Position numbers and translations under genes: made by a program. This document shows, piece after piece, positions 11,747 to 63,233 of a stretch of DNA of 64,000 bases; positions within the stretch are counted from its first letter, which is position 1, and every line of letters starts with the position of its first letter. The notes beneath the pieces are model-generated. The model did not search any database and was not told the origin of the DNA. It saw only the letters and a program-made list of their open reading frames with translations. This DNA comes from an uncultured Veillonellaceae bacterium (GTDB lineage Bacteria; Bacillota; Negativicutes; UBA1444). The stretch is taken from assembly GCA_964601085.1 (NCBI GenBank), contig CAZRLN010000001.1, positions 19,166-83,165 on the forward strand. The letters run 5' to 3'.

Positions 11747-11785
11747 GCAGGAAGCAATTGCAAAAACAGTTTTTTTATAAAACGC

Positions 11786-11815
11786 TTTGACTATTCCGAC
11801 GGCTTATGTTATATT
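11786..11815 (+). promoter_or_regulatory. sigma-A type promoter for the Rrf2-nifS-nifU operon
   Basis: -35 TTGACT at 11786-11791. After an 18-nt spacer comes an extended -10 TGTTATATT at 11807-11815. The gene start is about 45 nt downstream. Confidence 0.6.
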
Positions 11816-11860
11816 TTAAACATAAATCCGATTAAAATAGTCGGAATAAGAGGAGCTTGT

Positions 11861-12325: not shown

Positions 12326-12327
12326 GA

Positions 12328-13557: not shown

Positions 13558-13559
13558 GT

Positions 13560-13934
13560 ATGTATTCACAAAAAGTAATGGATCATTTTTCAAACCCGCG
13601 CAATGTCGGGGAACTGTCGAACGCCGACGGCGTGGGCGAAGTCGGCAACGCCAAATGCGGCGATATCATGAAGATTTTTCTCAAGGTGGAGAACGGCGTC
13701 ATCGAGGATGTGAAATTCCAGACATTCGGCTGCGGTGCGGCGATCGCCACGAGTAGCATGGTGACGGAAATGGTCAAAGGAAAAAGCCTGGAGGACGCTC
13801 TCCGGGTTACCAATGAAGCGGTAGCGGAAGCATTGGACGGACTGCCGCCGGTCAAAATGCACTGTTCCAATCTGGCGGCCGATGCTGTGCATGCCGCGAT
13901 CAAGGATTACATGGAGAAGCATCCGAACGGCTGA
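13560..13934 (+). CDS. nifU: Fe-S cluster assembly scaffold (NifU/IscU N-terminal domain type)
   Basis: Conserved Cys in GNAKCGD, GCGAAIA and MHCS. 4-nt overlap with nifS. Confidence 0.9.
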   Translation: MYSQKVMDHFSNPRNVGELSNADGVGEVGNAKCGDIMKIFLKVENGVIEDVKFQTFGCGAAIATSSMVTEMVKGKSLEDALRVTNEAVAEALDGLPPVKMHCSNLAADAVHAAIKDYMEKHPNG

Positions 13935-13975
13935 TTTTTTCTCCTGGCTGTTGATAAAGTCCCATCTGCTGTTTC

Positions 13976-14001
13976 AAGGAGCCGACAAACGGCTCCTTTT
14001 T
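13976..14001 (+). terminator. rho-independent terminator of the Rrf2-nifS-nifU operon
   Basis: Stem ggagccg/cggctcc with loop acaaa, followed by TTTTT. Confidence 0.7.
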
Positions 14002-14025
14002 CGTGTTCGCCGGTTGATGCGGCAA

Positions 14026-14055
14026 ATTGACAAGAGTTCGGTAAATTGTGTATAA
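14026..14055 (+). promoter_or_regulatory. sigma-A type promoter upstream of alaS
   Basis: -35 TTGACA at 14026-14031. After an 18-nt spacer comes an extended -10 TGTATAAT at 14048-14055. alaS ATG is at 14098 with RBS GGAGG. Confidence 0.65.
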
Positions 14056-14097
14056 TTCCTTGAGAATGCGCCCGTTAGGCCAATTGGAGGTTAAAGC

Positions 14098-36972: not shown

Positions 36973-38153
36973 ATCATTATTACGCCGATTTTCACATCCA
37001 TGTCGGAATCAGTGAATCCGGTCGCTGGGTGAAGATCCCCACATCCCGCCGCCTGACTGTCCGGACGATTCTGGAGACCGCGCTGCGGCGCAAGGGGATC
37101 GAAATTGTCGGAGTCGTCGATGCGCTGTCGCCCTGGGTGCAGGAAGACATCCAGCGCCTGGTGGATGAAGGCGGTCTGGTGCTGCAAAGCGGCGGCGGCT
37201 ATTTGTATCACAACGGAGTTTCCCTGATTCTTGGCGCTGAGATTGAGACTTGCGAGGAAGGCGGTGGCATGTGCCATTCGCTTTCCTATCTGCCGGATTT
37301 GGACTCCATGCGGGAATTTTCCCGGGAAATGTCGGGATACATCCGAAATATCGGCTTGAGTTCGCAAAACGCCCATTTGCCGTTTCGCCGCCTGGTGGAG
37401 ATTGCTGCGGCGCATGAAGCGCTGTTTGTGCCGGCGCATGCGTTTACCCCGCACAAAAGTTTGTTCGGTTCCTGCACCGATTCCTTGGCTGCAGTGCTGC
37501 CAACGGCGCTGCGATCCTGCATTGCCGCCGTTGAGCTGGGCTTGTCGGCGGATACGGCGATGGCCGATCGCATCAATGACCTGTGGGGCTTCGAGTACCT
37601 CACGAATTCGGATGCGCATTCTCCGGATAAGATCGGCCGGGAATATAACCGGATGGTTCTGGAGGCTTCTTCGTTTGCGGAATGCGCTCTGGCCTTCCGG
37701 CGGCGGCAGGGACGCTGCATCGCCGAAAATTACGGAATGGATCCCCGACTGGGGAAATACCACCATAATTGCTGCGATCACTGCGGTCTGGTCTATGACG
37801 GCAGTGATACAGCGGGAATTTGTCCGGACTGCGGCGGCGCCAAACTGGTAAAAGGCGTTTCCGAGCGGATCGGGGAGCTGGCCGATTTGCCGCCAGGCGC
37901 CCATCCCTCAACCCGGCCGGTCTATCATTACCATGTGCCGCTGCCGATGCTGCCTGGCTTGGGCGGAAAAACACTCGACAAGTTAGTGGCCGAACTGGGA
38001 ACGGAAATGGAACTGATTCATCAAGTTCCCTTGACGGAAATACATCGGGTAGGCGGAACGCGGGCGGCCCGGGCTTTTTCCGCCGTGCGTAGCGGCAGTG
38101 CAACCGTTCAGAGCGGCGGTGGCGGGATCTACGGACGAATCCGCCTTGATTGA
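36969..38153 (+). CDS. endonuclease Q-like PHP-domain protein (TIGR00375 family)
   Basis: ADFHIHVGIS PHP N-terminus and a C-terminal Zn finger CCDHCG...CPDCGG. Confidence 0.7.
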   Translation: MNHYYADFHIHVGISESGRWVKIPTSRRLTVRTILETALRRKGIEIVGVVDALSPWVQEDIQRLVDEGGLVLQSGGGYLYHNGVSLILGAEIETCEEGGGMCHSLSYLPDLDSMREFSREMSGYIRNIGLSSQNAHLPFRRLVEIAAAHEALFVPAHAFTPHKSLFGSCTDSLAAVLPTALRSCIAAVELGLSADTAMADRINDLWGFEYLTNSDAHSPDKIGREYNRMVLEASSFAECALAFRRRQGRCIAENYGMDPRLGKYHHNCCDHCGLVYDGSDTAGICPDCGGAKLVKGVSERIGELADLPPGAHPSTRPVYHYHVPLPMLPGLGGKTLDKLVAELGTEMELIHQVPLTEIHRVGGTRAARAFSAVRSGSATVQSGGGGIYGRIRLD

Positions 38154-38167
38154 CAGGAGTACGGCGT

Positions 38168-39055
38168 ATGGAAGAATTATTGCAGGAGTTTTTGCATTAT
38201 ATCGCGGTGGAACGGGGACTGGCGAGGAACACGATCCTTGCCTATGAACGGGATCTGCGGCAGTTTTTCAACTATTTGGCGGATAACGGAATTCAGGGCG
38301 TGGATCAACTGCAGCCGCCAATTTTGGTGAAATATCTTCGCAGCCTCCAAGCCGACGGTTTGCGGGCCACCTCCATATCCCGAAAATTGGCGGCAATTCG
38401 CAATTACTGTCAATATGCCGTTCGGGAACGGATATTGAAGAAAGATCCCTCCGGCATGATTGAATCCATGAAAACTCCGCTGCGGTTACCGAAAGTACTG
38501 GACGAAAAAGAAATCGCCGCATTGCTCGAACAGCCGGCTGAGCTGAAACCGTCCGGACTGCGCGACCGGGCAATGCTGGAACTGATGTACGCTACCGGAG
38601 TTCGGGTATCGGAACTGGTTTCACTGAAAGTGAACGATGTGAATATGGACATGGGGTACATCCGGTGTTTCGGTAAGGGTTCCAAGGAACGCATCGTCCC
38701 GATGGGCGAGATCGCCCAATCGGCGGTGCGGGACTACCTGAACCGGGGACGGCCGAAACTTTTGAGCCGTTCTCTGGAGGACACGCTGTTTCTCAACCGG
38801 CGCGGCCAAAAAATGACCCGGCAGGCTTTCTGGCTGATTATCCAGGCGAAAGCCCGGCAGGCCGGGATTGCCAAAACGGTGACGCCGCATATGCTGCGGC
38901 ATTCATTCGCCACCCATCTGCTCGACCATGGGGCCGATCTTCGCTCGGTTCAGGAAATGCTGGGACATGTAGATATCACGACCACACAGATTTATACGCA
39001 TGTGACCCGGACCCGGTTGAAGGAAGTCTACAACCGGACTCATCCCCGGGCATAG
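38168..39055 (+). CDS. xerD: site-specific tyrosine recombinase XerD
   Basis: N-terminal SAM-like domain and catalytic R...K...HxxR...Y with LGHVDITTTQIYTHV. Confidence 0.85.
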   Translation: MEELLQEFLHYIAVERGLARNTILAYERDLRQFFNYLADNGIQGVDQLQPPILVKYLRSLQADGLRATSISRKLAAIRNYCQYAVRERILKKDPSGMIESMKTPLRLPKVLDEKEIAALLEQPAELKPSGLRDRAMLELMYATGVRVSELVSLKVNDVNMDMGYIRCFGKGSKERIVPMGEIAQSAVRDYLNRGRPKLLSRSLEDTLFLNRRGQKMTRQAFWLIIQAKARQAGIAKTVTPHMLRHSFATHLLDHGADLRSVQEMLGHVDITTTQIYTHVTRTRLKEVYNRTHPRA

Positions 39056-40861: not shown

Positions 40862-41152
40862 ATGTCGAAAAAAGGTAATCGTTACAACGCGGATTTTAAG
40901 AAGAAAGTCATTGCCCACAGTCGTCAGCCTGGCAATACTATTGCCGGAACCGCCAAGCAGTTTGACATCAGCGATCAGACTCTGCGCAACTGGCTTAACC
41001 AACGCGAGGATCAGAAACATCTGGACCGACTGCGATTGATGCAATTGGAAAAGGAATTGGCGGAAGCAAAACGACGATTGGCGGACATGGAATTGACCAA
41101 TGAAATTTTGATCAAGGCCACCGCAATTTTTGCCGCTAATAAGCAAGCCTGA
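40862..41152 (+). mobile_element. IS3-family transposase OrfA (HTH + leucine-zipper) lacking an OrfB partner; IS remnant
   Basis: MSKKGNRYNADFKKKVIAHSRQ...QTLRNWLNQ HTH_Tnp_1 domain followed by a coiled-coil, ending ...IFAANKQA*. RBS GGAGGAG. No OrfB-like ORF or frameshift partner follows; a polysaccharide export gene starts 54 nt later. Confidence 0.65.
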
Positions 41153-41205
41153 TGTTATTGTCTGAATCAACCGAACACTTAGTGGACAGAATGGAGGGGA
41201 AGCCG

Positions 41206-41940
41206 ATGAAGAAGTGGTTTTTGCTACTGCTGATTTTGTTGATTATGCCGCACGCCGGCAGTTTGGCAGCCGAACTAAATATCCCTTATATTTTGCACCC
41301 TGGCGATGTGCTGTCGATTAATGTCGCCGGCTATCCCGAATTGAGCTTCCCGCAAACAGAAGGCCGTCAGGGCATTACAATCGGCCTGGATGGGAAAATA
41401 GCCTATCCGTTTTTAGGCGAGGTTTCCACGCAGGGATTGACTGCGGACCAATTGGCAACCTCCTTGGCGGAACGGCTCAAAGGAGTGTATGTAAACGCCG
41501 CTGTCAGCGTAAATATCATGCGGTATGGCAAAGAAAGGATTTATGTTTTGGGGGAAGTGAATCGACCCGGGTCCTACGAACTGGACAAAGTTCGGACCCT
41601 ATTGGACGCGATAGGCGCAGCCAGCGGCTGGCAAACCGATGCGGCGAAAACCAAGGTTTTTATTATTCGCCGTGATCAGAACGGCAAACCACCGATCAAG
41701 GTTAATTTGATGAGTTTGTTGGAAAATGGCGATACCAGCAAAAATCATCGGCTTCGCGAAGGCGATGTCGTATTTTTGGTTGGCTCAAACAAATTGAATT
41801 TGGCGACGGACCTTCTTCCCTTAGTTAATGCGGCGTATCAATTGGCGAAATTCAATCATCTGAATCCCAATAATAACCAAGCGTCGCAGACTTCTCAGAA
41901 CCCCAATAATCCTAATAATCCTGATCCTGGGTGTCACTGA
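41206..41940 (+). CDS. Wza-like polysaccharide export protein (OPX; Poly_export + SLBB domain), paralog 1
   Basis: Signal peptide MKKWFLLLLILLIMPHAGSLAAE, PGD(V/M)LSI Poly_export motif, and an SLBB domain. The C-terminus is low-complexity NPNNPNNPDPGCH. Confidence 0.8.
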   Translation: MKKWFLLLLILLIMPHAGSLAAELNIPYILHPGDVLSINVAGYPELSFPQTEGRQGITIGLDGKIAYPFLGEVSTQGLTADQLATSLAERLKGVYVNAAVSVNIMRYGKERIYVLGEVNRPGSYELDKVRTLLDAIGAASGWQTDAAKTKVFIIRRDQNGKPPIKVNLMSLLENGDTSKNHRLREGDVVFLVGSNKLNLATDLLPLVNAAYQLAKFNHLNPNNNQASQTSQNPNNPNNPDPGCH

Positions 41941-42023
41941 TCTGTATTCCGTCTGGCGTTGGAAATCCAAAGTTTTGCGGGTCTCGATAATCAGGGATTG
42001 TGAATATTTAAGGGGGTGTACTA

Positions 42024-42725
42024 ATGAGAAAATGGTTGTTTCTGGTGATGATTCTGGTGATCCTGCCGCATACAGGCGTGCTGGCGGCTGAAACGAATCC
42101 GGCGCCCACGCCGGACGTTAACAATTCTAATGGCGCCTATATCCTTCATCCGGGCGACATGCTGTCGATCAATGTGTTTGGGTATCCGGAATTGAGTTTT
42201 CCCAATCAGGGCCATATGGAAGGACTGACGATTCGCCCGGACGGAAAACTGACCTATCCCTTTCTGGGGGAAATCGCGGCAAAAGGAATGACGGTAAAAG
42301 ATTTCGCCAAGCTTCTTTCGGAACAGTTGGGCGAGATCTACGTGAACCCGGTTCTCAGCGTGAACATTATGCGTTTTGGTACGGATCGGATCTATGTCTT
42401 GGGCGAAGTCAACCAACCGGGAGCGTATGAGCTGGATAAGAGCCGAAATCTTCTGGACGCGATTGGCGCGGCGCGCGGCTGGACCAAAGATGCGGCGAAA
42501 ACCAAGGTTTTCATTATCCGTAAAGATCAAAACGGCAAGCCGCCACTAAAGATCAATCTCATGTCTTTGCTCAAGGAAGGCGATACCAGCAAAAACTATC
42601 CCCTTCAACAGGGCGACGTTGTATATCTGACGGAAAATCATCGGATTGATTTTGCCAGAGATATTGTGCCGCTCATCAATGCCGCCTACATGATTACCTG
42701 GATTTCCGACAACAACAAACGGTGA
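42024..42725 (+). CDS. Wza-like polysaccharide export protein (OPX), paralog 2
   Basis: About 65% identical to paralog 1 over the core, with signal peptide MRKWLFLVMILVILPHTGVLAAE. Confidence 0.8.
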   Translation: MRKWLFLVMILVILPHTGVLAAETNPAPTPDVNNSNGAYILHPGDMLSINVFGYPELSFPNQGHMEGLTIRPDGKLTYPFLGEIAAKGMTVKDFAKLLSEQLGEIYVNPVLSVNIMRFGTDRIYVLGEVNQPGAYELDKSRNLLDAIGAARGWTKDAAKTKVFIIRKDQNGKPPLKINLMSLLKEGDTSKNYPLQQGDVVYLTENHRIDFARDIVPLINAAYMITWISDNNKR

Positions 42726-44839: not shown

Positions 44840-46753
44840 ATGAGAAAAGGCAGGCGAATTCAGGTGCGACAAAAAATAAACCGCTTATGCCTGATGGTTG
44901 CTGATGCAGCGGTTTTTGCCGTCAGCCCCTTCATAGCATTATATCTGCGAGTAGACGACATAGCCGGAAGCGTATATTTGGATAAAATCATCCATTATCT
45001 GCCGGTGCTTCTGGCGGTCCACTTTCTTGCCTTTTTTGCCCTCCAACTGTACCGTCGGGTATGGAAATACGCCGGTATCCATGAATTGCTGTCGATTGTC
45101 GGGGCGGCGACGCTGGCGCAATTGTCGTTGTACCTTCTGGCCCAGGCGGGCGGGATTGGTTTGCCGCGAAGCCTCTATATTCTCTGCGGGTTGTTGGAAG
45201 TTGCAATGATTGGCGGAATTCGGCTGTCGGTAAGAATTGCATCGAACAAATGCCTCGAATTTCTTGGCCGCCCCGAAAAAATTCTGATATTTGGCGCCGG
45301 TGATGTGGGATCTTGGATTGTAAAGGAAATCCGTGCCCATTATGGCGCCAACAAGAAAATTGTTGGATTCATCGATGATGACCCGAAGAAATTGGGTTGC
45401 ATACTGAATGGCGTAAAAGTGCTGGGCGGGCGTTATGAAATTGAAAAAATTGTCACGCAGCATGGAATCGATGAAATCATTGTCGCCATCCCATCCGCCC
45501 GCAGCATGCTAGTTCGGGAAATTGTTAAAATGTGCCGTAGTACGAAAAGTAAAGTCAAAATTGTCCCCGCACTTCATGAGGTCATTGACGGATTGGTTAC
45601 AATTCGCCAGTTGCGGGATGTCAATCTGGAAGATTTGTTGCACCGGGAACCGATCAAACTGGACATTGCCCTGATGCGAACGCAATTTCGGCAAAAACGA
45701 GTGCTGATCACCGGCGCCGGTGGCTCCATCGGATCGGAGATTTCCCGCCAGGTAGCCAAGATGTTACCGGCTAAGCTGTATTTGTTGGGCAAGAGTGAAA
45801 ACAATATTTTTGAAATTGAACGCGAATTGCAAAGGTTGTATCCACACCTGGAAATGGAGCCGATTATTGCGGATGTTCGTGATGAAAAGCGCATCCGCAG
45901 CATATTCGCCGAACGACGTCCGGAAATCATCTTTCACGCCGCCGCGCACAAACATGTTCCCCTGATGGAGAGCCAACCGGTAGAGGCGGTTCAGAATAAT
46001 ATTTTCGGGACGATGACTGTCGCCAGAGCCGCAATGGCCGTGGAAGCAGAATGTTTTGTCATGGTGTCCACGGACAAAGCCATTAATCCTTCCAGTGTCA
46101 TGGGGGTAACCAAGCGAGTGGCGGAGATGGTCATTTGTTCCATGAACGGGAAGAGCGCCACAAGATTCGCCGCGGTACGCTTCGGCAATGTGCTGGGCAG
46201 CAGGGGCAGCGTGGTTCAACTGTTTCGCAAACAAATCGCCCAAGGCGAGGCCATCACGATCACTCACCCCGACATGTGCCGCTACTTCATGACGATTCCG
46301 GAAGCTTCGCAACTGGTGCTCCAGGCCGGCGCCATGGCGAAGGGCGGCGAAGTGTTTGTCCTCGACATGGGGGAACCGATCAAGATTGTGGATTTGGCTT
46401 GCCACTTGATTGAGCTGACCGGTTTGGTTCCCCACAAGGACATAAAAATTGAATATACAGGCTTACGTCCCGGCGAAAAACTGTTTGAAGAGTTGTTGAC
46501 GGCGGAAGAGGGCAGCTCGGCAACAAAACATGAAAAAATATTTGTGACTAATTTGAAAAAAGTGGATGAAGAAAAGTTGTATGAAAGCCTGACGGTTTTG
46601 AGAAATATCGAGGATTCGGATAAAATCGTCAACCTTCTGGCAAAATTGGTTCCCACGTACCAAGGTTCCAGGGTACGGCGGCTGCGCCTGATCGAAGGCA
46701 AAGAAGCGCTGACGACGGTTGATGGGAAAATGGTTCCCGAGGAGGCGCTTTGA
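44840..46753 (+). CDS. membrane-anchored UDP-N-acetylglucosamine 4,6-dehydratase (CapD/PglF/WbpM family)
   Basis: 637 aa. Four N-terminal TM helices, then tandem Rossmann domains with GAGGSIGSE, and an SDR catalytic region. Confidence 0.85.
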   Translation: MRKGRRIQVRQKINRLCLMVADAAVFAVSPFIALYLRVDDIAGSVYLDKIIHYLPVLLAVHFLAFFALQLYRRVWKYAGIHELLSIVGAATLAQLSLYLLAQAGGIGLPRSLYILCGLLEVAMIGGIRLSVRIASNKCLEFLGRPEKILIFGAGDVGSWIVKEIRAHYGANKKIVGFIDDDPKKLGCILNGVKVLGGRYEIEKIVTQHGIDEIIVAIPSARSMLVREIVKMCRSTKSKVKIVPALHEVIDGLVTIRQLRDVNLEDLLHREPIKLDIALMRTQFRQKRVLITGAGGSIGSEISRQVAKMLPAKLYLLGKSENNIFEIERELQRLYPHLEMEPIIADVRDEKRIRSIFAERRPEIIFHAAAHKHVPLMESQPVEAVQNNIFGTMTVARAAMAVEAECFVMVSTDKAINPSSVMGVTKRVAEMVICSMNGKSATRFAAVRFGNVLGSRGSVVQLFRKQIAQGEAITITHPDMCRYFMTIPEASQLVLQAGAMAKGGEVFVLDMGEPIKIVDLACHLIELTGLVPHKDIKIEYTGLRPGEKLFEELLTAEEGSSATKHEKIFVTNLKKVDEEKLYESLTVLRNIEDSDKIVNLLAKLVPTYQGSRVRRLRLIEGKEALTTVDGKMVPEEAL

Positions 46754-50363: not shown

Positions 50364-51584
50364 ATGAAAGCGATGTTTGTACACGAACACAAGTTTGTTC
50401 GCGACGAAACCGGTAATTACTATTCTTCCGGACAATTTCCCTATCGGATTTGGCAACGGTATCTGGAGAATTTTGACGAATTGGTGGTCGTAGGCCGATT
50501 AAGGCCATTGCGGTCCGGGGAAAACTATCAATCCATGGATTTGTCGAGCGGTCCGAACGTAAGCTTCATGGAAGCGCCTTCACTCAGCGATCCTTGTTCC
50601 ATGATTTTTCGACGGCAGGAAGCAGCGGACAGAATCCGGAAAGCAATGCAAACCTGTGACGCCGTTATTATCCGAACCAGCGCCATGGGGCAACTTGCGG
50701 CTGAAATCGCCATGCAACTAAAGAAACCATGGGCGGTGGAAGTCGTGGGGTGCGCGTTCGATTCGCTATGGAATTATGGCAACTGGCAGGGAAAGTTATA
50801 TGCGCCATTTGCGGCCACCATGAACCGAAGAATGATCGGCAAGGCCCCTTTCGCGATCTACGTGACGCAAAGATTTCTGCAAAACCGCTATCCCTGTCCC
50901 GGTTATTCCGTCGGCTGTTCGGATGTGCAACTGGAAAAACGGGATGAGAAGATATTGATCAATCGGCTCAAGAGAATAGAAGGTAATGGCCCGGTTTTCA
51001 AAATTGGCCTGATTGGATCCCTCGTACATTCCCACAAGGGAATCGATACTGCGCTGCGGGCTTTGAAAAGGAGCAGGGAAAAACTGCCGCCGTTTGAATT
51101 CAGGATTCTTGGCGCTGGCGATCCCAAACGCTGGCAAACACTGGCCGAAGAGTGCGGAGTCGGTTCACAAACTGCATTTTGCGGTACGTTGGCCAACGGC
51201 GCAGCCGTAAGTCATTGGTTGGATGAAATCGACCTGTATATTCAGCCCAGCCGGGTCGAAGGCTTGCCCAGGGCGCTGGTGGAAGCGATGAGCAGGGGTT
51301 GCCCGGCATTGGGGTCGAATGTTGGCGGAATTCCTGAACTTCTGGATTCGCAGTGCCTTCACAAACCGGATGACGTCAATGGCTTGGCCCGGCTGTTGCT
51401 CACTGCCATTGGCAATAGAGAATGGCGGGTTGAGCAAGCCCAAAAGAACTTTTTACACGCCGGGGAATATGATGGCGAGGTGCTGGGCGAAATTAGACGG
51501 AATTTTTGGCGGAAGTTCGTCAACTATTGCCAAAGGGTTTCGGGTCCGGATTCCAACAAAGTATACCGCGATTGCATCGTTTGA
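50364..51584 (+). CDS. glycosyltransferase family 4
   Basis: C-terminal GT-B motif EGLPRALVEAMSRGCPALGSNVGGIPEL (E-x7-E). Confidence 0.85.
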   Translation: MKAMFVHEHKFVRDETGNYYSSGQFPYRIWQRYLENFDELVVVGRLRPLRSGENYQSMDLSSGPNVSFMEAPSLSDPCSMIFRRQEAADRIRKAMQTCDAVIIRTSAMGQLAAEIAMQLKKPWAVEVVGCAFDSLWNYGNWQGKLYAPFAATMNRRMIGKAPFAIYVTQRFLQNRYPCPGYSVGCSDVQLEKRDEKILINRLKRIEGNGPVFKIGLIGSLVHSHKGIDTALRALKRSREKLPPFEFRILGAGDPKRWQTLAEECGVGSQTAFCGTLANGAAVSHWLDEIDLYIQPSRVEGLPRALVEAMSRGCPALGSNVGGIPELLDSQCLHKPDDVNGLARLLLTAIGNREWRVEQAQKNFLHAGEYDGEVLGEIRRNFWRKFVNYCQRVSGPDSNKVYRDCIV

Positions 51585-51624
51585 CCAGAATTTCGGAACG
51601 CAGGCGAGCTTGGAGGATGAAGCC

Positions 51625-52995
51625 GTGAACTTGCGGGAAAAATCGTCGTCAAAGGCCGGGCTGTACTTGATGATTACCGTTTTACTTGTTCTTGCGGGCT
51701 TTGTTTGGTGGAAAGAGAGCAATGCCTTTGGTGTGACGCATTCGAATCCGGCCGGAAAAAAAATGACGGCGTCCCGGAATCAGGTTGCGGGGGCCGGGGG
51801 AACGGAATCAGGTTCGGTCACGGATGTCATCAATGTGAAGTCGTTTGGCGCCCGCGGCGATGGGGAACACAACGATACGGCGGCGATCCAGGCCGCAATC
51901 GATGCCGCCGGAGGCAAAACAACAACCGTTTTCATCCCGCCGGGAGAATATAAAATTGATGCGGTTCAGTCACTGACGCTAAAAAGCGGCACTACCCTGC
52001 AAATGACCCCGGACACCATCCTGCGCGTGATTCCCAATTCTGCACCGCGTTACGCCTTGATCACAGTGAACGGCGTAGAGAATGTCCGGATTCTCGGCGG
52101 TATTCTGATCGGCGACCGCAAGCAACACTTCGGCATAACCGGCGAATGGGGCATGGGGATTCGCATTACCGGCGCGAAAAATATACTTGTTCAGGATACG
52201 ACCTGCAATGAATTTTGGGGTGACGGGTTTTATATCGGCGAAACGACGCCGGGCAAGCCAAGCGAAAATGTCCGCCTGGTGGGCATCAAGGCGGACCGGA
52301 ACCGCCGTCAGGGATTGTCGCTGATCAGCGGGAAAAACATTGAGATTATCAACGCCGGTTTTACAAATACCAATGGAACGGCTCCGGCGGCAGGAATAGA
52401 TATCGAACCCAACAACCCGCGTAATGTATTGGAAAATATTATCATCCGGGATTTAACCACGGCTGGAAATCAAGGCGCGGGAATTATCATCAGCTCGGGA
52501 GCTTTGGCCGGCACGACGAATCCTGTCGGCATCCGAATCCTGAATCACCGGGATGAAGGCAGCGATCGCGGTATGCAGATTTCCACCAAAGGCATCATTT
52601 CCGGTGAGATCCTTATCGATCATCCGGAATGGAATAACACCCGCCGGAATGCAATCGCCATCCAGGGGCATGATCATCGTTCTTTCCACATCCAGATCAA
52701 TGCCGCCGCGATAACCGACGTGAATCAGAGCCTCCCGGGGGCAGCAATCGACATATACAGCTTTAAAGGTAGCAGTCCCAATGAAAATGGCGGGATCGGC
52801 AATGTCAGCGTCAACAGCCCGGTGATCGCCGATACCAGGGTCAATCCCAAGACCATTGCAGCTTTCTATATTTGGGATATTCCCGGCCATCGGATTCGGC
52901 GGTTGTCAATCAGCAATCCGGTTTTAAAAGGAAATTTGACGATGCTTTCTCTCCAAAATAATATTCATGAGTATGTGAACTATACGCAAAAATAG
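51625..52995 (+). CDS. right-handed parallel beta-helix (pectate-lyase fold) protein with N-terminal signal-anchor
   Basis: GTG start after RBS GGAGGA. TM helix LYLMITVLLVLAGFVWW. The Pectate_lyase_3-like motif VKSFGARGDGEHNDTAAIQAAIDAAG is followed by repeated beta-helix coils. Confidence 0.7.
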   Translation: MNLREKSSSKAGLYLMITVLLVLAGFVWWKESNAFGVTHSNPAGKKMTASRNQVAGAGGTESGSVTDVINVKSFGARGDGEHNDTAAIQAAIDAAGGKTTTVFIPPGEYKIDAVQSLTLKSGTTLQMTPDTILRVIPNSAPRYALITVNGVENVRILGGILIGDRKQHFGITGEWGMGIRITGAKNILVQDTTCNEFWGDGFYIGETTPGKPSENVRLVGIKADRNRRQGLSLISGKNIEIINAGFTNTNGTAPAAGIDIEPNNPRNVLENIIIRDLTTAGNQGAGIIISSGALAGTTNPVGIRILNHRDEGSDRGMQISTKGIISGEILIDHPEWNNTRRNAIAIQGHDHRSFHIQINAAAITDVNQSLPGAAIDIYSFKGSSPNENGGIGNVSVNSPVIADTRVNPKTIAAFYIWDIPGHRIRRLSISNPVLKGNLTMLSLQNNIHEYVNYTQK

Positions 52996-56600: not shown

Positions 56601-57203
56601 GTGAAACGGATGTTTGACCTGGTCGCTTCCGCGACACTGTTGATCTTTCTGTTACCCGTACTGGCCGTTATTGCCGTTTTGGTTCGGTGGCGGCTCGGTT
56701 CTCCTGTAATTTTCAGAGCGATTCGTCCCGGTCTGCATGGCAAGCCGTTTTGCATGTATAAGTTTCGGACCATGACGAATGCCCGTGATAAAGCAGGGCG
56801 TCTATTGCCGGATAAGGAAAGAATCAATCGATTGGGCGAGCTGTTGAGACGGTCGAGTTTGGATGAATTGCCTCAATTGGTAAATGTGATCAAAGGAGAA
56901 ATGAGTCTGGTTGGCCCCCGGCCACTGGCGATGGAATATCTGCCGCTTTACAATATGGAACAAGCTCGGCGGCATCACGTCAAACCCGGGATTACCGGCT
57001 GGGCCCAGGTCAATGGGCGAGCCACGATTTCCTGGACCGAAAAGTTCAAATTGGATGTTTGGTATGTAGATAATCATTCCTTTTCGATCGATATGTTGAT
57101 CTTGTTTCTGACGGTGAAGAATGTAGTTTTTCAACACGGCGTGTGCAACACTGGCGAAACAAAGTATGGCAATTTTTTGGGATCAAATTATAAGGATGGA
57201 TGA
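56601..57203 (+). CDS. undecaprenyl-phosphate sugar-phosphotransferase, small PglC/WbaP-C-terminal type (priming enzyme)
   Basis: Single N-terminal TM helix plus the Bac_transf domain with DELPQL and SLVGPRP motifs. 200 aa, typical of PglC-like enzymes that transfer N-acyl-amino-dideoxyhexose-1-P. Confidence 0.85.
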   Translation: MKRMFDLVASATLLIFLLPVLAVIAVLVRWRLGSPVIFRAIRPGLHGKPFCMYKFRTMTNARDKAGRLLPDKERINRLGELLRRSSLDELPQLVNVIKGEMSLVGPRPLAMEYLPLYNMEQARRHHVKPGITGWAQVNGRATISWTEKFKLDVWYVDNHSFSIDMLILFLTVKNVVFQHGVCNTGETKYGNFLGSNYKDG

Positions 57204-57206
57204 GAA

Positions 57207-57779
57207 ATGTTTATCACGGCAGGGGATATTCGGTTGCGTCGGCCTGAACCCAAGGATGTGGACGAATTATATAGCTATCGTAATGACCCCGGAATTGTTG
57301 GCGCGTTATGCGGGTTTTCTAAAGGATACTCCCGGGCGGATATGTTGGATTGGGTCGAACGGCAACGCAAAAATCAGCAGGACCTTGTTTGGGTGATTGC
57401 TGATGCGGAAGACCGTTGCATTGGTCACTGCGGGTTATACAACATCGATTTCAGTGTTGGTACGGCTGAAGTCGCAATATGTATCGGCAAGGCTGATTTT
57501 CGAAAGGGGCAAAGCCGGGCCATTATGGAGGCGCTAAAAGAATATGGCTTTGGCTATCTGAATCTGCGGAAGATTCGGGGTGAAGTGCTTGGTACGAACA
57601 AATTGGCGATCAATTTCAACAAAAAATGCGGCATGAAAGAAGAAGGCATATTGCGCGAAGAGGAATATAGAGACGGACAGTATGTTGACGTGCATGTTTT
57701 TGGGTTGTACCGAAGGGACTGGAAGCCGATCTTGCCGGGAACTGACGAAAGTGGCCGAGTTTGTGAAACGAGGGGATGA
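57207..57779 (+). CDS. GNAT N-acetyltransferase (RimL/PseH-like), paralog 1
   Basis: Acetyltransf_3-type GNAT: LRRPEPKDVDELYSYRNDP...IGHCGL... Confidence 0.8.
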   Translation: MFITAGDIRLRRPEPKDVDELYSYRNDPGIVGALCGFSKGYSRADMLDWVERQRKNQQDLVWVIADAEDRCIGHCGLYNIDFSVGTAEVAICIGKADFRKGQSRAIMEALKEYGFGYLNLRKIRGEVLGTNKLAINFNKKCGMKEEGILREEEYRDGQYVDVHVFGLYRRDWKPILPGTDESGRVCETRG

Positions 57780-58333
57780 TCTTTTTGCTGATTGACAACG
57801 TCGTCCAGCTGCGGCGGCCTGAACCGGAAGATATTGAAGCGATGTATGACTACCGCAATGATCCTCGGATTGTCGCAACAATGGGGATGACTTCCCGCGG
57901 ATTTGCCCGTGCCGACGTTGCCGAATGGATTGACTCCCATCGAAAGAATAGGGATGATCTCGTTTGGACGATTGCCGATTTGAATGATCGGTGTATTGGC
58001 CACTGTGGACTATACAAGATTAATCCCCGAAACGGAGTTGCGGTGATCGGTATTTGCATTGGCGATGTTGGCCTTTGGGGCAAGGGGATCGGGACAACCG
58101 TAATTGATGGCGTGGTTACGTATGCCTTTCAACAAATGAATCTCCGGAAAATCAAGGCGGAAGTGCTCGCGACAAACATTTCAGCACGGAAGTTGTTCGA
58201 TAAACTCGGTTTCAAGACTGAGGCGATTTTGCGGGAATACAAATATCGAAACGGACAATATCTGGATTTTCATGTTTTGAGTGTATTTAGAAATGAGTGG
58301 GCACAACGGTGCGAACAATGGCAGCCAGAATAA
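57776..58333 (+). CDS. GNAT N-acetyltransferase (RimL/PseH-like), paralog 2
   Basis: About 55% identical to paralog 1 (LRRPEPEDIEAMYDYRNDP...IGHCGLYKIN). 4-nt overlap with the paralog 1 stop. Confidence 0.8.
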   Translation: MIFLLIDNVVQLRRPEPEDIEAMYDYRNDPRIVATMGMTSRGFARADVAEWIDSHRKNRDDLVWTIADLNDRCIGHCGLYKINPRNGVAVIGICIGDVGLWGKGIGTTVIDGVVTYAFQQMNLRKIKAEVLATNISARKLFDKLGFKTEAILREYKYRNGQYLDFHVLSVFRNEWAQRCEQWQPE

Positions 58334-59403
58334 AACCCTGGGAAGCTGGCAGCGAATTTCACTGGATGCCGCTGGCGCATGGTTCACGCAAACCCTATTA
58401 TTTAACGGCGGCAAATCTCTATTCATGCGGCCGGTCGGCATTGGCGGGAATCCTTCAATACGGCAGGGAAGTTTTGGGTTGGAAACGTTTGTGGATTCCT
58501 TCCTATTACTGTCCGGAAGTTGTTGAGACGATATTCGCCACAGGAATTTCAGCAGAATTTTACTTTGACTCTCCAATGGATCAGGTTGTCGTTCCAAGGG
58601 ATATTCTTCCTGGCGATGCAATCCTAATTGTCAATTTTTTTGGCGTGAAAAGTCGGGAAGAGTATGAGGAAATTTTTCGATTGGAGATTCCGGTAATCGA
58701 AGATCATAGTCATGATCCCTGGAGTCTTTGGGTAATGCAAAGCCAGGCCAGTTATCTGACTGCTTCGCTAAGGAAAACATTGCCAATTCCGGATGGCGGC
58801 GCGACTTGGTCGAATATCGGGTCGCATCTCCCGCCTCAACCAGCGCAGAAAGGTCAATCGAGCAACGTACCCGTTGAAAAAATTGAAGCAATGCTACTTA
58901 AAACCTTATATTTAGCCGGAAAGATTTCGGATAAGGAACGGTATCTCGAACTATTCAATTCCGCTAAACATAATCTTTGCCTTTCAACGGTTGATCAGCA
59001 GTGTGGCGAAGAACCGATCAGCGAACTTTCCAAAGGGATTTTGACCTCGTTTCCCTGGCGAGGTTGGCGCGCAAAACGGTTAGCGAATTACCGGCGTTTG
59101 CGACAACAGGTTCTGGAAAAATCGGGGATGAAAATATTGGAATCCAATGACCGGGATGTATGTCCTTTTATGATGACGGTGTTGTTTTCTACCCGAAAAA
59201 AACGGGATCAGATGAAAAAGAGATTAATTAAAAATTCCATTTATCCTGCCATAATTTGGCCGATTGAAGAAAGTCATGCTTGGGCAAGCGAACGGGCAAA
59301 AATATTGTCAGGGCAAATACTGTCCATTCACTGCGACGGCAGATACTCTCTGACCGATATGGACAAAATCGCTGCGATATTCAACCAAGGCATCGTTCCA
59401 TAA
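58318..59403 (+). CDS. divergent DegT/DnrJ/EryC1/StrS-like PLP-fold enzyme
   Basis: Fold-type I AAT pattern is recognisable: YSCGRSALAGIL...EVV...IPVIEDHSHDP...ASLRKTLPIPDGGA parallels the DegT nSGTaAL...DEVI...vIEDaAqAhG...fSFhptKnltxGEGG motifs. Many consensus residues are replaced. Start uncertain (GTG 58297 or ATG 58318), overlapping GNAT-2. Confidence 0.5.
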   Translation: MAARIKPWEAGSEFHWMPLAHGSRKPYYLTAANLYSCGRSALAGILQYGREVLGWKRLWIPSYYCPEVVETIFATGISAEFYFDSPMDQVVVPRDILPGDAILIVNFFGVKSREEYEEIFRLEIPVIEDHSHDPWSLWVMQSQASYLTASLRKTLPIPDGGATWSNIGSHLPPQPAQKGQSSNVPVEKIEAMLLKTLYLAGKISDKERYLELFNSAKHNLCLSTVDQQCGEEPISELSKGILTSFPWRGWRAKRLANYRRLRQQVLEKSGMKILESNDRDVCPFMMTVLFSTRKKRDQMKKRLIKNSIYPAIIWPIEESHAWASERAKILSGQILSIHCDGRYSLTDMDKIAAIFNQGIVP

Positions 59404-59427: not shown

Positions 59428-60498
59428 ATGGAATTTTTTAAAATGCTGGACGCTTCCAACAGGGAGGAATATGAAACTTGGCTGCAGGTTTGGTCAGAGT
59501 GGCCGGCGCGCGAAGTGTTCGCGCACCCGGAATATGTCAATCTGTTTGCCAGAAAATGTGATCGTTCGGTATGCGCCGTTCAGAAAAAAAGCGATGGATT
59601 GATCATCATGCCGATGATTATGCGACCAATTTCGGCGGAAATTTGGGCGGACGAGGAAAACCAGTCGTATGATATGGTTGCGCCTTATGGCTATGGTGGA
59701 CCGTATGTGTCAGGGCAATATAACTTGCAAGAATTTTGGCGCCACTTCCTGCGATGGGCGACTGAGAGAGGAATTATCGCCGCGTTTTTTCGCTTTTCTC
59801 CGTTTGCGGCCGATATTTCCGGATTAATTGATTCAGTGGATGTTACCGGCGGAAATGTGATCCGGTCTCTGACCGAAGGAAAGGATGGAATCTGGAACGA
59901 TTACAAGCATGCGGTTCGAACTTGTGTCCGATCGGCAGAAATGAACGAGGTTACAGTGGAATTTGATGAAACGGAAGAGCGATTGCCAAGTTTTATTCGC
60001 CTATATTACCAAACAATGCAACGATGCCATGCGGATCGGCAATATTTTTTCCCAGTGGAATTTTTTCATCGAATCGTTGCGAATTTGCGGGGACAGTATT
60101 TCTTTGCCTTTGCAATGTTTCAGGGGAAAGAGATTGCCGGGAAATTGGTTTTGTATTCGCAAGAACATCTGTATCCGTTTCTCGGCGGAGCTGATGAACG
60201 ATTTTTCAACTTAAATCCGAATCAACTTTTGGACACCAGGATTTTTTACTGGGGAGTTGAAAACGGGAAAAAAAGTTGTGTTCTGGGTGGCGGTTATGAC
60301 GGATACGATGGTGTTTTTCAGTATAAAAAAAAATTTGCTCCAACTGGTGTTGTCCCTTTTTCAGTAGGGAAACACATTCTTGATCCCACTGAATACAGAA
60401 AAATGTATGCAAAACGGCAAGAATATGAAATGAAACAGGGGCGGAATTGGAACAATGAAGGGATCTTCTTTCCCGAGTACCGGTCAAAAAGCGATTGA
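59428..60498 (+). CDS. FemAB-family / BioF2-like (Acetyltransf_6) transferase, paralog 1
   Basis: Family pattern LYYQTMQRCH...FF, NPNQLLDTRIFYWGVENGKK...LGGGYDGYDGVFQYKKKFAP (cf. FemAB/TIGR03019 PEP-CTERM-associated FemAB-related proteins). Alternative start at 59419. Confidence 0.7.
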   Translation: MEFFKMLDASNREEYETWLQVWSEWPAREVFAHPEYVNLFARKCDRSVCAVQKKSDGLIIMPMIMRPISAEIWADEENQSYDMVAPYGYGGPYVSGQYNLQEFWRHFLRWATERGIIAAFFRFSPFAADISGLIDSVDVTGGNVIRSLTEGKDGIWNDYKHAVRTCVRSAEMNEVTVEFDETEERLPSFIRLYYQTMQRCHADRQYFFPVEFFHRIVANLRGQYFFAFAMFQGKEIAGKLVLYSQEHLYPFLGGADERFFNLNPNQLLDTRIFYWGVENGKKSCVLGGGYDGYDGVFQYKKKFAPTGVVPFSVGKHILDPTEYRKMYAKRQEYEMKQGRNWNNEGIFFPEYRSKSD

Positions 60499-60535
60499 TA
60501 CAGGAATGTGGACCGTCGATGGAGGCTGTGCAAAT

Positions 60536-61600
60536 ATGTTTAAGATTTTGGATGCCGCCGATCATAATGATTATTCAAAATGGCTTCGGATATGGGAGAG
60601 TTGGCCATTACGAGAAGTCTTCGCGCATCCGGAGTATGTTAAGCTGTTCGCGCGAGGATGTGATCGCGCCGTGTGCGCGGTTCAGGAGAATGCCGACGGA
60701 ATGATTCTTCTGCCGTTGATTTTGCGTCCATTAGCAGCGGAACCTTGGGCGGGAAAAGATACTCCATATTTTGATGCAGTTGCGCCCTATGGCTTTGGCG
60801 GTCCATTTATCAACGGGCGATACGACATGGAGGAGTTTGGACGTCATTTCAAGGCTTGGGCGCAAAACGTCGGAATTGTGTCCGCGTTTTTCCGGTTGTC
60901 GCCATTTGCCGCAGATATTAGGAATATGGTCGATACCGTGGATGTGAGCGGCGGCAACGTGATCCGATCGCTATCGGAGGGGTATGACGAGATTTGGCGG
61001 GATTATAAACAACTGGTCCGCACTCATGTCAAAAAAGCAACCCAAAGCGGGGTAACCGCGGAGTTCGATGAAACCGGCGATAGCTTGCCGGCCTTTATCC
61101 GCTTGTATTACCGGACGATGCAACGATGCCATGCAGCGCAGCAATACTATTTTTCTGCAGATTTTTTCCGAAAAATCACAACGCGTCTGAAGGGGCAGTA
61201 CTTCCTTGCCAAGGCCAAGTATAAAGAGGAAGTGATCGCAGCGTACATTGTGCTGGTATCGCAGGAAAGCATTTATTATTATCTTGCCGGATCGAATGAA
61301 AATTTCTTTCACCTCAGACCCAATCAGTTTTTAACCAATGCCGTATTCCAATGGGGGATCGACCACGGAAAGAAATGGTGTATTCTAGGGGGCGGATATG
61401 AGGGGTATGATGGTGTGTTTCAATATAAAAAAGCGTTTGCACCCGCAGGAGTAGTTCCCTTTTTGGTTGGCAAACACATTTATTATCCGTCGGAGTATCA
61501 AGATTTCTGTGAAAAGCGAAAAGCGCATGATCTTCAAAATGGATTGAGCTGGATTACCAATGATTCCTTTTTCCCAGCCTATCGAACTAAGAATGATTGA
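60536..61600 (+). CDS. FemAB-family / BioF2-like (Acetyltransf_6) transferase, paralog 2
   Basis: About 60% identical to paralog 1 (FAHPEYVKLFARGCDRAVCAVQ..., RPNQFL...GGGYEGYDGVFQYKKAFAP). Confidence 0.7.
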   Translation: MFKILDAADHNDYSKWLRIWESWPLREVFAHPEYVKLFARGCDRAVCAVQENADGMILLPLILRPLAAEPWAGKDTPYFDAVAPYGFGGPFINGRYDMEEFGRHFKAWAQNVGIVSAFFRLSPFAADIRNMVDTVDVSGGNVIRSLSEGYDEIWRDYKQLVRTHVKKATQSGVTAEFDETGDSLPAFIRLYYRTMQRCHAAQQYYFSADFFRKITTRLKGQYFLAKAKYKEEVIAAYIVLVSQESIYYYLAGSNENFFHLRPNQFLTNAVFQWGIDHGKKWCILGGGYEGYDGVFQYKKAFAPAGVVPFLVGKHIYYPSEYQDFCEKRKAHDLQNGLSWITNDSFFPAYRTKND

Positions 61601-61653: not shown

Positions 61654-62901
61654 ATGGCAATTCCGCAAAAACGTATCTGTCTTTCGCCGCCCCATATGAG
61701 CGGTTTCGAGCAGGAATATGTGTCGGATGCTTTTGCGTCAAACTGGATTGCTCCGTTGGGTCCCCACGTGGATGCCTTTGAAGCCGGAATTGCCAAGTAT
61801 GTCGGGTGCAAGGCGGCAGCAGCCCTGTGTTCAGGAACTGCGGCCATTCATCTGGCATTGAAATGCGCCGGTGTTCAAAAAGGCGACTGGGTATTTTGTT
61901 CCTCATTGACCTTCGCGGCGTCCGCCAATCCGATTCTGTATGAAGGAGCCCGGCCGGTCTTCATTGATTCGGAACCCGAGTCATGGAACATGTCGCCCAT
62001 CGCCTTGCGCAAGGCGATGGCGGATGCAAAAAGAGAGTGCAGACTTCCCAAAGCGGTGATTATTGTCAATTTGTATGGGCAAAGCGCCGATATGGATAAG
62101 TTGTTGCCAATCTGTGAAAGATATTGCGTTCCCGTTATTGAAGATGCGGCGGAATCCCTTGGCGCGACCTATCGGGGCAAAGCCAGCGGCACTTTTGGCA
62201 AATACGGCATGTTCTCTTTCAATGGCAATAAAATCATCACGACCTCGGGCGGCGGCATGCTCATATCGGACGATGTCGAGGCGATACAGAAAGCCCGGTT
62301 CTGGGCAACCCAGGCGCGTGACCCGGCCCGGCATTACCAGCACAGCGAGATTGGCTACAACTATCGCTTGAGTAATATCGCGGCGGCGATTGGCCGGGGA
62401 CAGTTGTGCGTATTGCCAGATCGCATAAAAAAAAGGCGCAAAATATTTGCGCGGTATTTTTCAGAACTGGAACGATATGATGGGCTTGAATTTATGCCTG
62501 AAGCCCCGTATGGACAGTGTAATCGCTGGTTGACAACGATGACGATCGATCCGGCCCGATCAAAAGTAACCGTCAACGAGGTGATGGATGCTTTGGCGGA
62601 AGAAGATATCGAATCCCGGCCTGTCTGGAAACCGTTGCACCTCCAACCGATTTTCGCCACATATCCTTACTATGCGCATGGCACGACGGAGAGTGTGTCG
62701 GACCGATTGTTTGAGCAGGGGATCTGTTTGCCGTCTGGCAGCAACATGACCGAAGAAGAGCAAGCGAGGGTGATCAAGGTGATTCAGGACTGCCTTGGGC
62801 ATCGCGAGGCAAGTTCCGTCGGATTTTTCTACGGCTCAAAGGGCGGAAACAGCCATTGGCTCAATAATGAGGCCGTTTTAGGCAATACATCGACAAATTG
62901 A
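61654..62901 (+). CDS. DegT/DnrJ/EryC1/StrS-family sugar aminotransferase (PglE/WecE/Per-like)
   Basis: Canonical motifs CSGTAAIHLALK, IVNLYGQSADMD, IEDAAESLGATYRGK and FSFNGNKIITTSGGGML (PLP Lys). RBS AAAGGAGTG. Confidence 0.9.
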   Translation: MAIPQKRICLSPPHMSGFEQEYVSDAFASNWIAPLGPHVDAFEAGIAKYVGCKAAAALCSGTAAIHLALKCAGVQKGDWVFCSSLTFAASANPILYEGARPVFIDSEPESWNMSPIALRKAMADAKRECRLPKAVIIVNLYGQSADMDKLLPICERYCVPVIEDAAESLGATYRGKASGTFGKYGMFSFNGNKIITTSGGGMLISDDVEAIQKARFWATQARDPARHYQHSEIGYNYRLSNIAAAIGRGQLCVLPDRIKKRRKIFARYFSELERYDGLEFMPEAPYGQCNRWLTTMTIDPARSKVTVNEVMDALAEEDIESRPVWKPLHLQPIFATYPYYAHGTTESVSDRLFEQGICLPSGSNMTEEEQARVIKVIQDCLGHREASSVGFFYGSKGGNSHWLNNEAVLGNTSTN

Positions 62902-63233
62902 CAACCATAACAAGATTCTTCTTTCCACATTACAGTTGCGGAAAAAAACAATTTTCCCAGGGAAGTTTCCAGCTCCAATCCTATTTGTTGCTGCAATTCC
63001 AGGAATGAATCGGTCTGAATTGTCAATCCTTCCGGAGAAATTTGCGAAGCTAGAACCTGGTTGCGAATATCAGGCTGATTTTTGGTGAACAAAATAGCAG
63101 GCAGGGATTTTTTCACTCTCGACCGACCTTCTTTTTTCCTTAATAAATGCGATATGCTTGCTCAAGCATAATACATTTTATTTATCATACCATATTGGGA
63201 ATCAAGTTTGAAGAAAATGGAGGATTGATTCAT

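Follow-up and report, generated by a model that had tools for sequence, protein, structure and literature searches.

The open reading frame (ORF) at positions 58318 to 59403 of a 64,000-nucleotide stretch of DNA from an uncultured Veillonellaceae bacterium (contig CAZRLN010000001.1; the whole stretch is referred to as the window) belongs to a protein family that, judged from profile comparisons and a structure model, is a distant sister of the DegT aminotransferases and not a member of that family in the Pfam sense. Its genes are linked to those of FemAB-like transferases and of a small phosphoglycosyl transferase (PGT), and the gene under study, called the target below, sits within a complete Wzx/Wzy-type polysaccharide locus. 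With a probability of roughly 45 % we propose that this large, ancient family comprises pyridoxal 5'-phosphate (PLP) dependent tailoring enzymes of a branch that aminoacylates a 4-amino-4,6-dideoxy-N-acetylhexosamine (HexNAc) priming sugar. Its novelty is best seen in the pocket, which appears rebuilt on the known DegT scaffold, and in a conserved partnership that is likewise new.

Relation to the DegT family

The target gene lies on the + strand, ends at 59403 and may start with GTG at 58297 or ATG at 58318. The ATG version encodes 361 residues, and this start is also used by an independent public gene call on an identical metagenome contig (L166). According to the ORF list of the window the reading frame is intact and of full length. 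The gene and its motifs are located as follows:

58318 to 59403, + strand: target gene, 361-residue member of an unmodelled DegT-like PLP-fold family, "LONG" form
58339 to 58365, + strand: N-terminal family motif WEAGSEFHW, in a low-confidence part of the monomer model
58693 to 58731, + strand: VIEDHSHDPWSLW, residues 126-138, with Asp129, His132 and the family-specific His130 and Asp133
58759 to 58812, + strand: TASLRKTLPIPDGGATWS, residues 148-165, with Ser150, Arg152, Lys153 and Asp159-Gly160
59320 to 59346, + strand: C-terminal-domain family motif LSIHCDGRY, without counterpart in canonical DegTs

The two central motifs occur exactly as quoted in a preliminary description of the window, which had recognised a highly divergent DegT-like gene alongside a canonical one. 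The canonical DegT is indeed present 2.2 kb downstream. A scan of the target against Pfam and NCBIfam (hmmscan) gave no match at E<=0.1, and the PF01041 gathering score of 19.8 bits was not reached. Two of 34 family members reached PF01041 at E<=0.01 (best 1e-4), the other 32 staying below threshold. Nothing significant was found among PDB sequences with the target alone (phmmer), and with the 34-sequence family profile (hmmsearch) nothing but a C-terminal match to DesI came up, which was not significant (E=1.7).

Profile-profile comparison with hhalign aligned the family to six canonical DegTs with a probability of 96.5 % (E=7.7e-10) over 293 colinear columns in both domains. When repeated with 201 against 47 sequences, the comparison reached 96.7 % (E 4.3e-10) in global mode; in local mode it reached 89.3 % (E 2.1e-6). 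The match to the single canonical DegT of the window was weak (14 %, E 0.0019) and became stronger once the DegT alignment was used. The template-free AlphaFold2 model of the target (predicted local distance difference test score 87.3, predicted template-modelling score 0.89; 89-97 around the motifs) exhibits the full-length two-domain architecture of fold type I, the fold of aspartate aminotransferase (AAT), and the top ~47 Foldseek matches in the PDB were all DegT-family enzymes (2e-12 to 1.5e-10), at identities of 11-16 %. Both central motifs align with the DegT motifs ED-x-A-(Q/H/E)-A and S-F-x-x-x-K. The assignment as a distant sister follows from these results, since the Pfam, NCBIfam and PDB sequence searches were empty but the profile-profile and structure matches are clear. 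The divergent DegT-like, fold-type-I nature of the protein is therefore borne out, with the qualification that its fold signature is recognisable to hhalign and to AlphaFold2 with Foldseek and not to hmmscan, phmmer or hmmsearch. Of the two signs named in the preliminary description, a significant PF01041 match is absent from the Pfam scan while the AAT fold is clearly present.

In comparison to DegT/DnrJ/EryC1/StrS enzymes (PF01041; for example Spr1654, PseC, PglE, WecE and DesV) the target is only 11-17 % identical. The DegT hairpin region is replaced by a helical segment at about residues 166-246, S-F-x-x-x-K by S-L-R-K, and an N-terminal WExGSEFHW as well as a C-terminal D-x-R-Y motif are added. 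The link to FemAB-like genes further sets the family apart from these enzymes.

Residue conservation was determined by comparing 201 family sequences with 47 canonical DegTs from their loci, and this alignment is also the basis on which PLP binding and the geometry of the target's pocket are predicted. The following residues correspond to cofactor positions of the DegT enzymes:

Gly38, 96 %: aligned to the Gly of the DegT S-G-T turn
Glu128-Asp129, 95 % and 98 %: aligned to DegT E-D, with Asp at the pyridine N1 position
His132, 99 %: aligned to the DegT E/Q/H three residues past the Asp, at the O3' ligand position
Ser150, 98 %: aligned to the DegT phosphate Ser
Lys153, 100 %: aligned to the 100 % conserved DegT Schiff-base Lys
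Gly160, 100 %: Asp159-Gly160 aligned to DegT (G/E)GG

The template for the presumed roles of Asp129 and His132 is the pair Asp170/His173 of Spr1654, the canonical D-x-x-H cofactor pair (PMC5936713). Other pocket positions are changed throughout the family: DegT Thr62 corresponds to Arg39 (97 %), the ring-contacting Phe87 (Phe/Tyr) to Cys65 (99 %), Ala165 to His130 (99 %), Ala/Ser168 to Asp133 (96 %) and Asn192 to Arg152 (100 %), and the spacing from Ser to Lys is 3 (S-L-R-K) instead of 5. At the positions of the DegT motif H...GxNxR (His230, Gly234, Asn236, Arg238; 98-100 % in the 47 DegTs) the family is variable or gapped. Trp164, Ser165, Lys195, Lys206, Asp340 (100 %), Arg342 (100 %) and Tyr343 (99 %) are new invariant residues, the last three belonging to the C-terminal motif, and Glu9, Gly11 and Ser12 of the N-terminal W-E-x-G-S-E-F-H-W motif are conserved to 98-99 %. 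In total the family has 30+ invariant positions.

Thus the residues predicted to hold the cofactor at the Schiff base, the pyridine N1 and O3' are kept, the presumed phosphate site is kept in part (Gly38 and Ser150, but with Arg39 for Thr and the shorter Ser-to-Lys spacing), and the rest of the pocket appears rebuilt. Arg39 and Arg152 may stand in for lost phosphate ligands, Cys65 may face the cofactor, and Arg342 may mimic the carboxylate-binding Arg386 of AAT. Because the changed positions are 96-100 % conserved across 201 members, the divergence marks, as had been supposed from the sequence of the target, a functional shift and not noise. With Cys339 conserved to only 94 %, we did not maintain a cysteine-desulfurase-like interpretation of the "HCD" motif.

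The homologue search revealed >1,052 relatives, nearly all of 350-380 residues, with no precomputed Pfam domain among the 120 matches listed. A profile search of 1.84 billion cluster representatives gave 8,458 matches at E<=1e-3, 5,003 at <=1e-10 and 1,539 at <=1e-30; counted at 50 % identity, this last set amounts to at least 1,539 family clusters. Carriers among reference genomes span more than ten phyla. The closest are Negativicutes (49-51 % identity), Bacteroidota are represented by Prevotella pallens ATCC 700821 and a Bacteroides thetaiotaomicron isolate, and further carriers belong to Myxococcota, Cyanobacteriota, Chloroflexota, Planctomycetota, Acidobacteriota, Actinomycetota, Armatimonadota and Noviherbaspirillum. 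In public records most members are named "hypothetical protein" and occasionally one is named "DegT/DnrJ/EryC1/StrS family aminotransferase". Since Pfam and NCBIfam models miss the family, at least 1,500 sequence clusters mostly receive the former name in annotation pipelines, and a family model would improve the annotation of polysaccharide loci, including those of gut and oral Bacteroidota.

The target is under purifying selection. In comparison with two syntenic orthologues its ratio of non-synonymous to synonymous substitution rates (dN/dS) is 0.335 (86 % identity, dS 0.19) and 0.16 (60 % identity). These are the highest values of the cassette, PGT, FemAB-like and DegT genes lying at 0.07-0.11, and they are far under 1. 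Together with the intact, full-length ORF and thousands of full-length relatives sharing the invariant positions, they contradict the suggestion that the gene is degenerating, and a decaying pseudogene is hardly credible.

The conserved cassette

In the window the target is part of the following cassette:

56601 to 57203, + strand: small monotopic PGT (Bac_transf, PglC-like; E 4e-63)
57207 to 57779, + strand: PseH-like GNAT paralogue (Acetyltransf_3)
57776 to 58333, + strand: PseH-like GNAT (Acetyltransf_3), directly upstream of the target
59428 to 60498, + strand: FemAB-like / Acetyltransf_6 gene 1
60506 to 61600, + strand: FemAB-like / Acetyltransf_6 gene 2, 57 % identical to gene 1, GGG..D..(F/Y)K..F kept
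61654 to 62901, + strand: canonical DegT aminotransferase, PglE/LegC-like (PF01041, E=9.9e-97)

The upstream GNAT (stop 58333) and the target start overlap by 16 nt, the gap from the target stop to the next gene start is 16-25 nt (25 nt to FemAB-like gene 1 at 59428), and promoter-like or terminator-like matches in the region 55-64 kb were not above their frequency in shuffled sequence. The cassette therefore reads as a single operon.

The order small PGT-(GNAT)-X-FemAB-like-DegT, where X is the target family, recurs in a sample of 84 reference-genome and metagenome loci that were analysed by tblastn with the cassette proteins (two are duplicates, L018 = L001 and L040 = L002). A FemAB-like gene was found in 72 of the 84 loci (86 %), in 53 of them on the same strand and immediately downstream. 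The small PGT occurred in 71 loci, the canonical DegT in 58, a GNAT in 30 (directly upstream of the target in 23) and a PglF-like gene within 10 kb in 22, while Formyl_trans_N stood directly upstream in five. An unbiased all-versus-all clustering of ORFs within +-5 kb agrees with this ranking: FemAB-like genes were present in 64 of 83 loci at a median offset of +22 nt, followed by PGT (61), DegT (53), short-chain dehydrogenase/reductase (SDR) epimerase (31) and GNAT (22), and every other family occurred in <=11 loci. Natural fusions join members of the target family to a PGT (P0042), a GNAT (P0263), a GT2 glycosyltransferase (P0182), an FkbM methyltransferase (P0205) or a second DegT-like module (P0253).

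Loci without an adjacent FemAB-like gene can contain other amino-acid enzymes in its stead. Locus L070 of a Prevotella metagenome-assembled genome (6345-11949) carries, in this order, an ATP-grasp amino-acid-ligase-like gene, a mandelate racemase/muconate-lactonizing (MR/MLE) type gene, an opine dehydrogenase, the target and RmlA, and no FemAB. This set of genes, with its octopine/nopaline type of opine dehydrogenase, hints at a dTDP-amino sugar that bears an N-acyl group of the opine type. In L084 it is a WbqC-like gene that follows the target. A further arrangement was observed in L017, where a single 998-residue ORF (11298-14294) directly downstream of a family member combines a FemAB-like, a PglD-like left-handed beta-helix (LbH) acetyltransferase and a second FemAB-like part.

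For the reciprocal view, metagenome contigs were scanned with the FemAB-like alignment, which gave 80 loci, 63 of them with enough upstream sequence. The LONG form was detected by tblastn in 21 of the 63. Many of the target-less loci showed an unexplained gap between PGT and FemAB, and there the hidden Markov model of the family finds a divergent relative of ~310 residues, the SHORT form. Taken together, LONG and SHORT forms give a DegT-like extra gene to 32 of 62 FemAB-like loci (52 %), directly upstream in 26; the remaining loci read PGT-GNAT-FemAB-DegT or PGT-FemAB. With its motifs IED(E/A)AHA and SLHKMLP..GG the SHORT form is intermediate between DegT and target, and it matches PF01041 with E 5e-12 to 8e-22. 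Examples are L085:5041-5979, L145:5034-5960, L137:5064-5990, about 10 further metagenome loci and residues 358-662 of P0253. As P0253 is a fusion of LONG and SHORT forms and L155 carries both as separate genes, the two are not simply interchangeable and may pair.

The PseH-like (Acetyltransf_3) GNAT was confined to loci with the LONG form (10 of 21 loci with it, 0 of 42 without; Fisher p = 2.8e-6), which suggests that the substrate of this GNAT depends on the action of the target. The SHORT form is preceded by a GNAT of another subtype (Acetyltransf_1). A broader statement, by which GNATs in general would go with the target instead of with FemAB, was narrowed because target-less cassettes have GNATs of another subtype that the tblastn queries missed. 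The dependency within the cassette is asymmetric: FemAB-like cassettes work without the target, and the target rarely occurs without a FemAB-like gene. Such asymmetry is what one would expect if the target were an accessory tailoring enzyme of an aminoacyl branch, acting after aminoacylation.

Proposed function and alternatives

From these associations we infer the substrate, the order of steps and the type of reaction in the following scheme. The cassette would make the lipid-linked priming sugar of a Wzx/Wzy polysaccharide. A PglF-like dehydratase and the canonical DegT would provide UDP-4-amino-4,6-dideoxy-HexNAc, to whose amine the FemAB-like enzyme or enzymes would attach one or more amino acids, probably from aminoacyl-tRNA. 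The target would then use PLP to act on the alpha-amine that is still free on the attached residue and would be the sole PLP-reactive group present. Epimerisation is the first guess for its reaction, because the amine would stay available for the GNAT and a tRNA donor supplies only L-amino acids; transamination is the second. The PseH/RimL-like GNAT would subsequently cap the alpha-amine, and the PGT would move the finished sugar phosphate to undecaprenyl phosphate.

A coupling of PLP and FemX-like chemistry has a precedent in DhpH of a secondary-metabolite pathway, where a PLP domain is fused to a FemX-like domain. The FemAB-like partners of the target keep the FemX-type GGG..D..(F/Y)K..F motif, with Lys299 conserved to 98 %. 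For their proposed role the FemX-like Orf11 of the BD-12 pathway offers a parallel from secondary metabolism, as it aminoacylates an amino sugar from aminoacyl-tRNA (cited in the review PMC12945691). The target family itself has a median isoelectric point of 6.6, a net charge of about -2 and no bulk basic signature, which is uninformative on tRNA binding. The preliminary description had expected a second deoxy- or amino-sugar modification at this locus; such a modification is possible, but the neighbourhood favours a FemAB-like N-acylation branch over a second modification of the ring.

Several observations weigh against the proposed aminoacyl tailoring. All of the nearest structures are those of aminotransferases whose substrates are nucleotide sugars or related keto compounds, and the GNAT-target and PGT-target fusions fit a classical aminotransferase/N-acetyltransferase pair on a UDP-sugar equally well. 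In about 14 % of the family loci a FemAB-like gene was not found within 10 kb, and the loci were found by motif scanning, so they are not an unbiased sample. The use of aminoacyl-tRNA by the FemAB-like partners is suggested by homology. Target-less cassettes carry GNATs of a different subtype, so that the GNAT association is subtype-specific and not absolute, and an MR/MLE-type enzyme already present in L070 weakens the epimerase guess.

The strongest of the alternatives, on balance unlikely, is a conventional aminotransferase on a nucleotide- or lipid-linked sugar. It would add a second amine to be N-acylated by the PseH-like GNAT or a formyltransferase, the canonical DegT making the amine used by FemAB. 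Besides the closest structures, all of them sugar aminotransferases, the intact catalytic Lys, Asp and His speak for such an activity. Aminotransferase and N-acetyltransferase form a classic pairing, PseH is the best NCBIfam match of the GNAT, and the fusion P0263, the restriction of the PseH-like subtype to loci with the target and the five loci with Formyl_trans_N directly upstream are all in accordance with it. A second keto group would, however, have to be made, and neither a 3,4-ketoisomerase nor a C3 oxidase is among the recurrent neighbours. The H...GxNxR motif of the same-locus DegTs is missing from the family, which is moreover tied to FemAB-like genes and not to general sugar-amination loci.

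Rather unlikely is a more far-reaching form of our proposal, in which the family would represent PLP enzymes of a novel kind that modify an amino acid already committed to a glycan (an aminoacyl-sugar alpha-epimerase or transaminase acting on the residue installed by FemAB). More radical still would be an enzyme that remodels the aminoacyl group on the tRNA before FemAB-like transfer, in the manner of SepCysS and SelA. If true, an alpha-epimerase or transaminase would explain D- or modified amino acids on amino sugars despite an L-only tRNA donor, and in either case PGT-GNAT-X-FemAB-DegT would supply the general pathway, so far missing, by which the N-(acyl-aminoacyl) amino sugars of O-antigens, capsules and exopolysaccharides are made.

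Improbable, too, is an enzyme whose substrate would be a free small molecule (such as an amino acid, a keto acid or a phosphorylated amine) and which would supply a non-standard building block to amide-forming enzymes. Capsule-locus PLP enzymes that act on dihydroxyacetone phosphate (DHAP) or O-phospho-L-serine instead of sugars are known: Cj1436 and Cj1437 of the Campylobacter jejuni HS:2 capsule, compared here by description only, likewise serve the amide decoration of a sugar and not ring amination, and they use the free compounds to feed a uronic-acid ATP-grasp amidoligase (PMC11800397). The new invariant basic residues Arg39, Arg152, Lys195 and Arg342 could bind a carboxylate or phosphate, in which regard canonical sugar aminotransferases lack the substrate-carboxylate arginines of AAT (PMC5936713); Arg39 and Arg152, however, may merely replace the lost phosphate ligands. 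The ATP-grasp ligase and the opine dehydrogenase of L070 would suit such a role, whereas the PGT and GNAT fusions point to a sugar-linked intermediate, and a non-proteinogenic product would be undeliverable via FemAB-like enzymes if those use aminoacyl-tRNA.

Little probability remains for a mainly structural or regulatory role, in which the protein would join the canonical DegT or the SHORT form to build a hetero-oligomeric active site. The model for this arrangement is Ser4/Ser5 of Serratia sp. ATCC 39006 (PDB 8y96; PMC11726168), where likewise two DegT-like genes per cluster occur, one of them atypical, and the LONG-SHORT fusion P0253 hints at similar hetero-pairing. Ser4, however, is truncated at both termini and lacks the Lys, whereas the target is of full length with its catalytic set intact. 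Since the family is full length with Lys153 at 100 % and Asp129 at 98 %, catalysis of its own can be argued. In addition, a canonical DegT is absent within 10 kb in ~30 % of the loci and is usually separated from the target by FemAB and thus not adjacent to it, and most loci, this window included, have no SHORT form.

In ColD and E1 a His takes the place of the Schiff-base Lys. A dehydratase of this pyridoxamine 5'-phosphate dependent 3-dehydratase type, an analogy drawn in the preliminary description, is hardly credible either, because the family keeps this Lys invariantly, without a His at that position, ColD and E1 do not outscore ordinary aminotransferases, two conserved Cys are too few for an E1-type cluster site, and the gene context gives no hint of 3-deoxygenation.

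Bacterial O-antigens and capsules commonly contain amino sugars that bear N-linked amino acids or N-acyl-amino acids. In the searchable literature, which omits most subscription journals, we found no characterised polysaccharide pathway that installs N-linked amino acids on amino sugars, no characterised polysaccharide cassette of the PGT-GNAT-X-FemAB-DegT type, no papers on the target family or the cassette, and nothing relevant on WbqC function or the biosynthesis of aminoacylated bacillosamine. The target marks a conserved multi-phylum cassette that is a concrete candidate for amino-acid decoration of amino sugars. Its biochemistry would show what the DegT scaffold does once the sugar-nucleotide-binding hairpin is replaced.

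The polysaccharide locus in the window

The remaining genes of the locus are the following:

41152 and 42024: two Wza-like exporters, a tandem pair spanning 41152-42725
42729: Wzz/GNVR
44141: BY-kinase ATPase
44840 to 46753, + strand: PglF/CapD-like membrane UDP-HexNAc 4,6-dehydratase (Polysacc_synt_2, E 3.8e-118)
46750: Wzx
48087: GT2
49093: Wzy-like
50364: GT4
~51670 to 52995: beta-helix protein, pectate-lyase-like
53000: UDP-sugar 6-dehydrogenase
54301: SDR epimerase
55370: GT4
62829 to 63116, - strand: PilZ-domain ORF, 95 residues, antisense (PF07238, E 1.2e-7)
from ~63235: GT4 running off the window

The PglF/CapD-like dehydratase is the presumed source of the 4-keto sugar. With the PglE-like aminotransferase and the PglC-like PGT it forms a bacillosamine-type trio in one locus. 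A PglD-type LbH N-acetyltransferase was not found inside the 64-kb window; in the syntenic loci L167 and L168 a PglD_N+Hexapep gene lies ~1.5 kb past the DegT, a position beyond the end of the window. The continuation there (L167:12101-13086, L168:10835-11832) comprises a GT4, the PglD-like LbH acyltransferase, a 77-residue PP-binding carrier and an AMP-binding enzyme. The carrier and the AMP-binding enzyme resemble DltA/DltC and may form a second, carrier-protein-based module for acylation or aminoacylation.

The best NCBIfam match of the canonical DegT is the LegC-family model TIGR04181 with 373 bits, under that model's 420-bit cutoff. This protein has 415 residues, a length shared with L167 and L168, and a C-terminal tail of ~35 residues without counterpart in the other aligned DegTs. 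Three tandem paralogue pairs occur in the locus, the PseH-like GNATs (57207-58333), the FemAB-like genes (59428-61600) and the Wza-like exporters. For the GNAT and FemAB genes, of which related loci contain one to three copies each, the pairing points to either two amino acids or two acceptor sites.

The beta-helix protein may serve the locus as a polysaccharide lyase or epimerase. In the window its ORF (51319-52995) overlaps the preceding GT4 by about 265 nt, and the public call starts later, at ~51670. The antisense PilZ ORF between the DegT and the next GT4 is conserved in L167 and may provide a cyclic di-GMP input to the locus.

The G+C content falls from about 0.55-0.59 at 10-40 kb to 0.46-0.52 over the polysaccharide locus (40001-64000), with a minimum of 0.46-0.47 at 58-62 kb, and the locus is closely preceded by a gene for a XerC/D-type integrase (38150-39055). 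It may thus represent a glycan island that is exchanged horizontally. Outside it, at 9360-10397, the window encodes an unrelated fold-type-I PLP enzyme (Beta_elim_lyase, E 5.7e-109; threonine-aldolase-like), which shows a weak cross-match to the DegT model.

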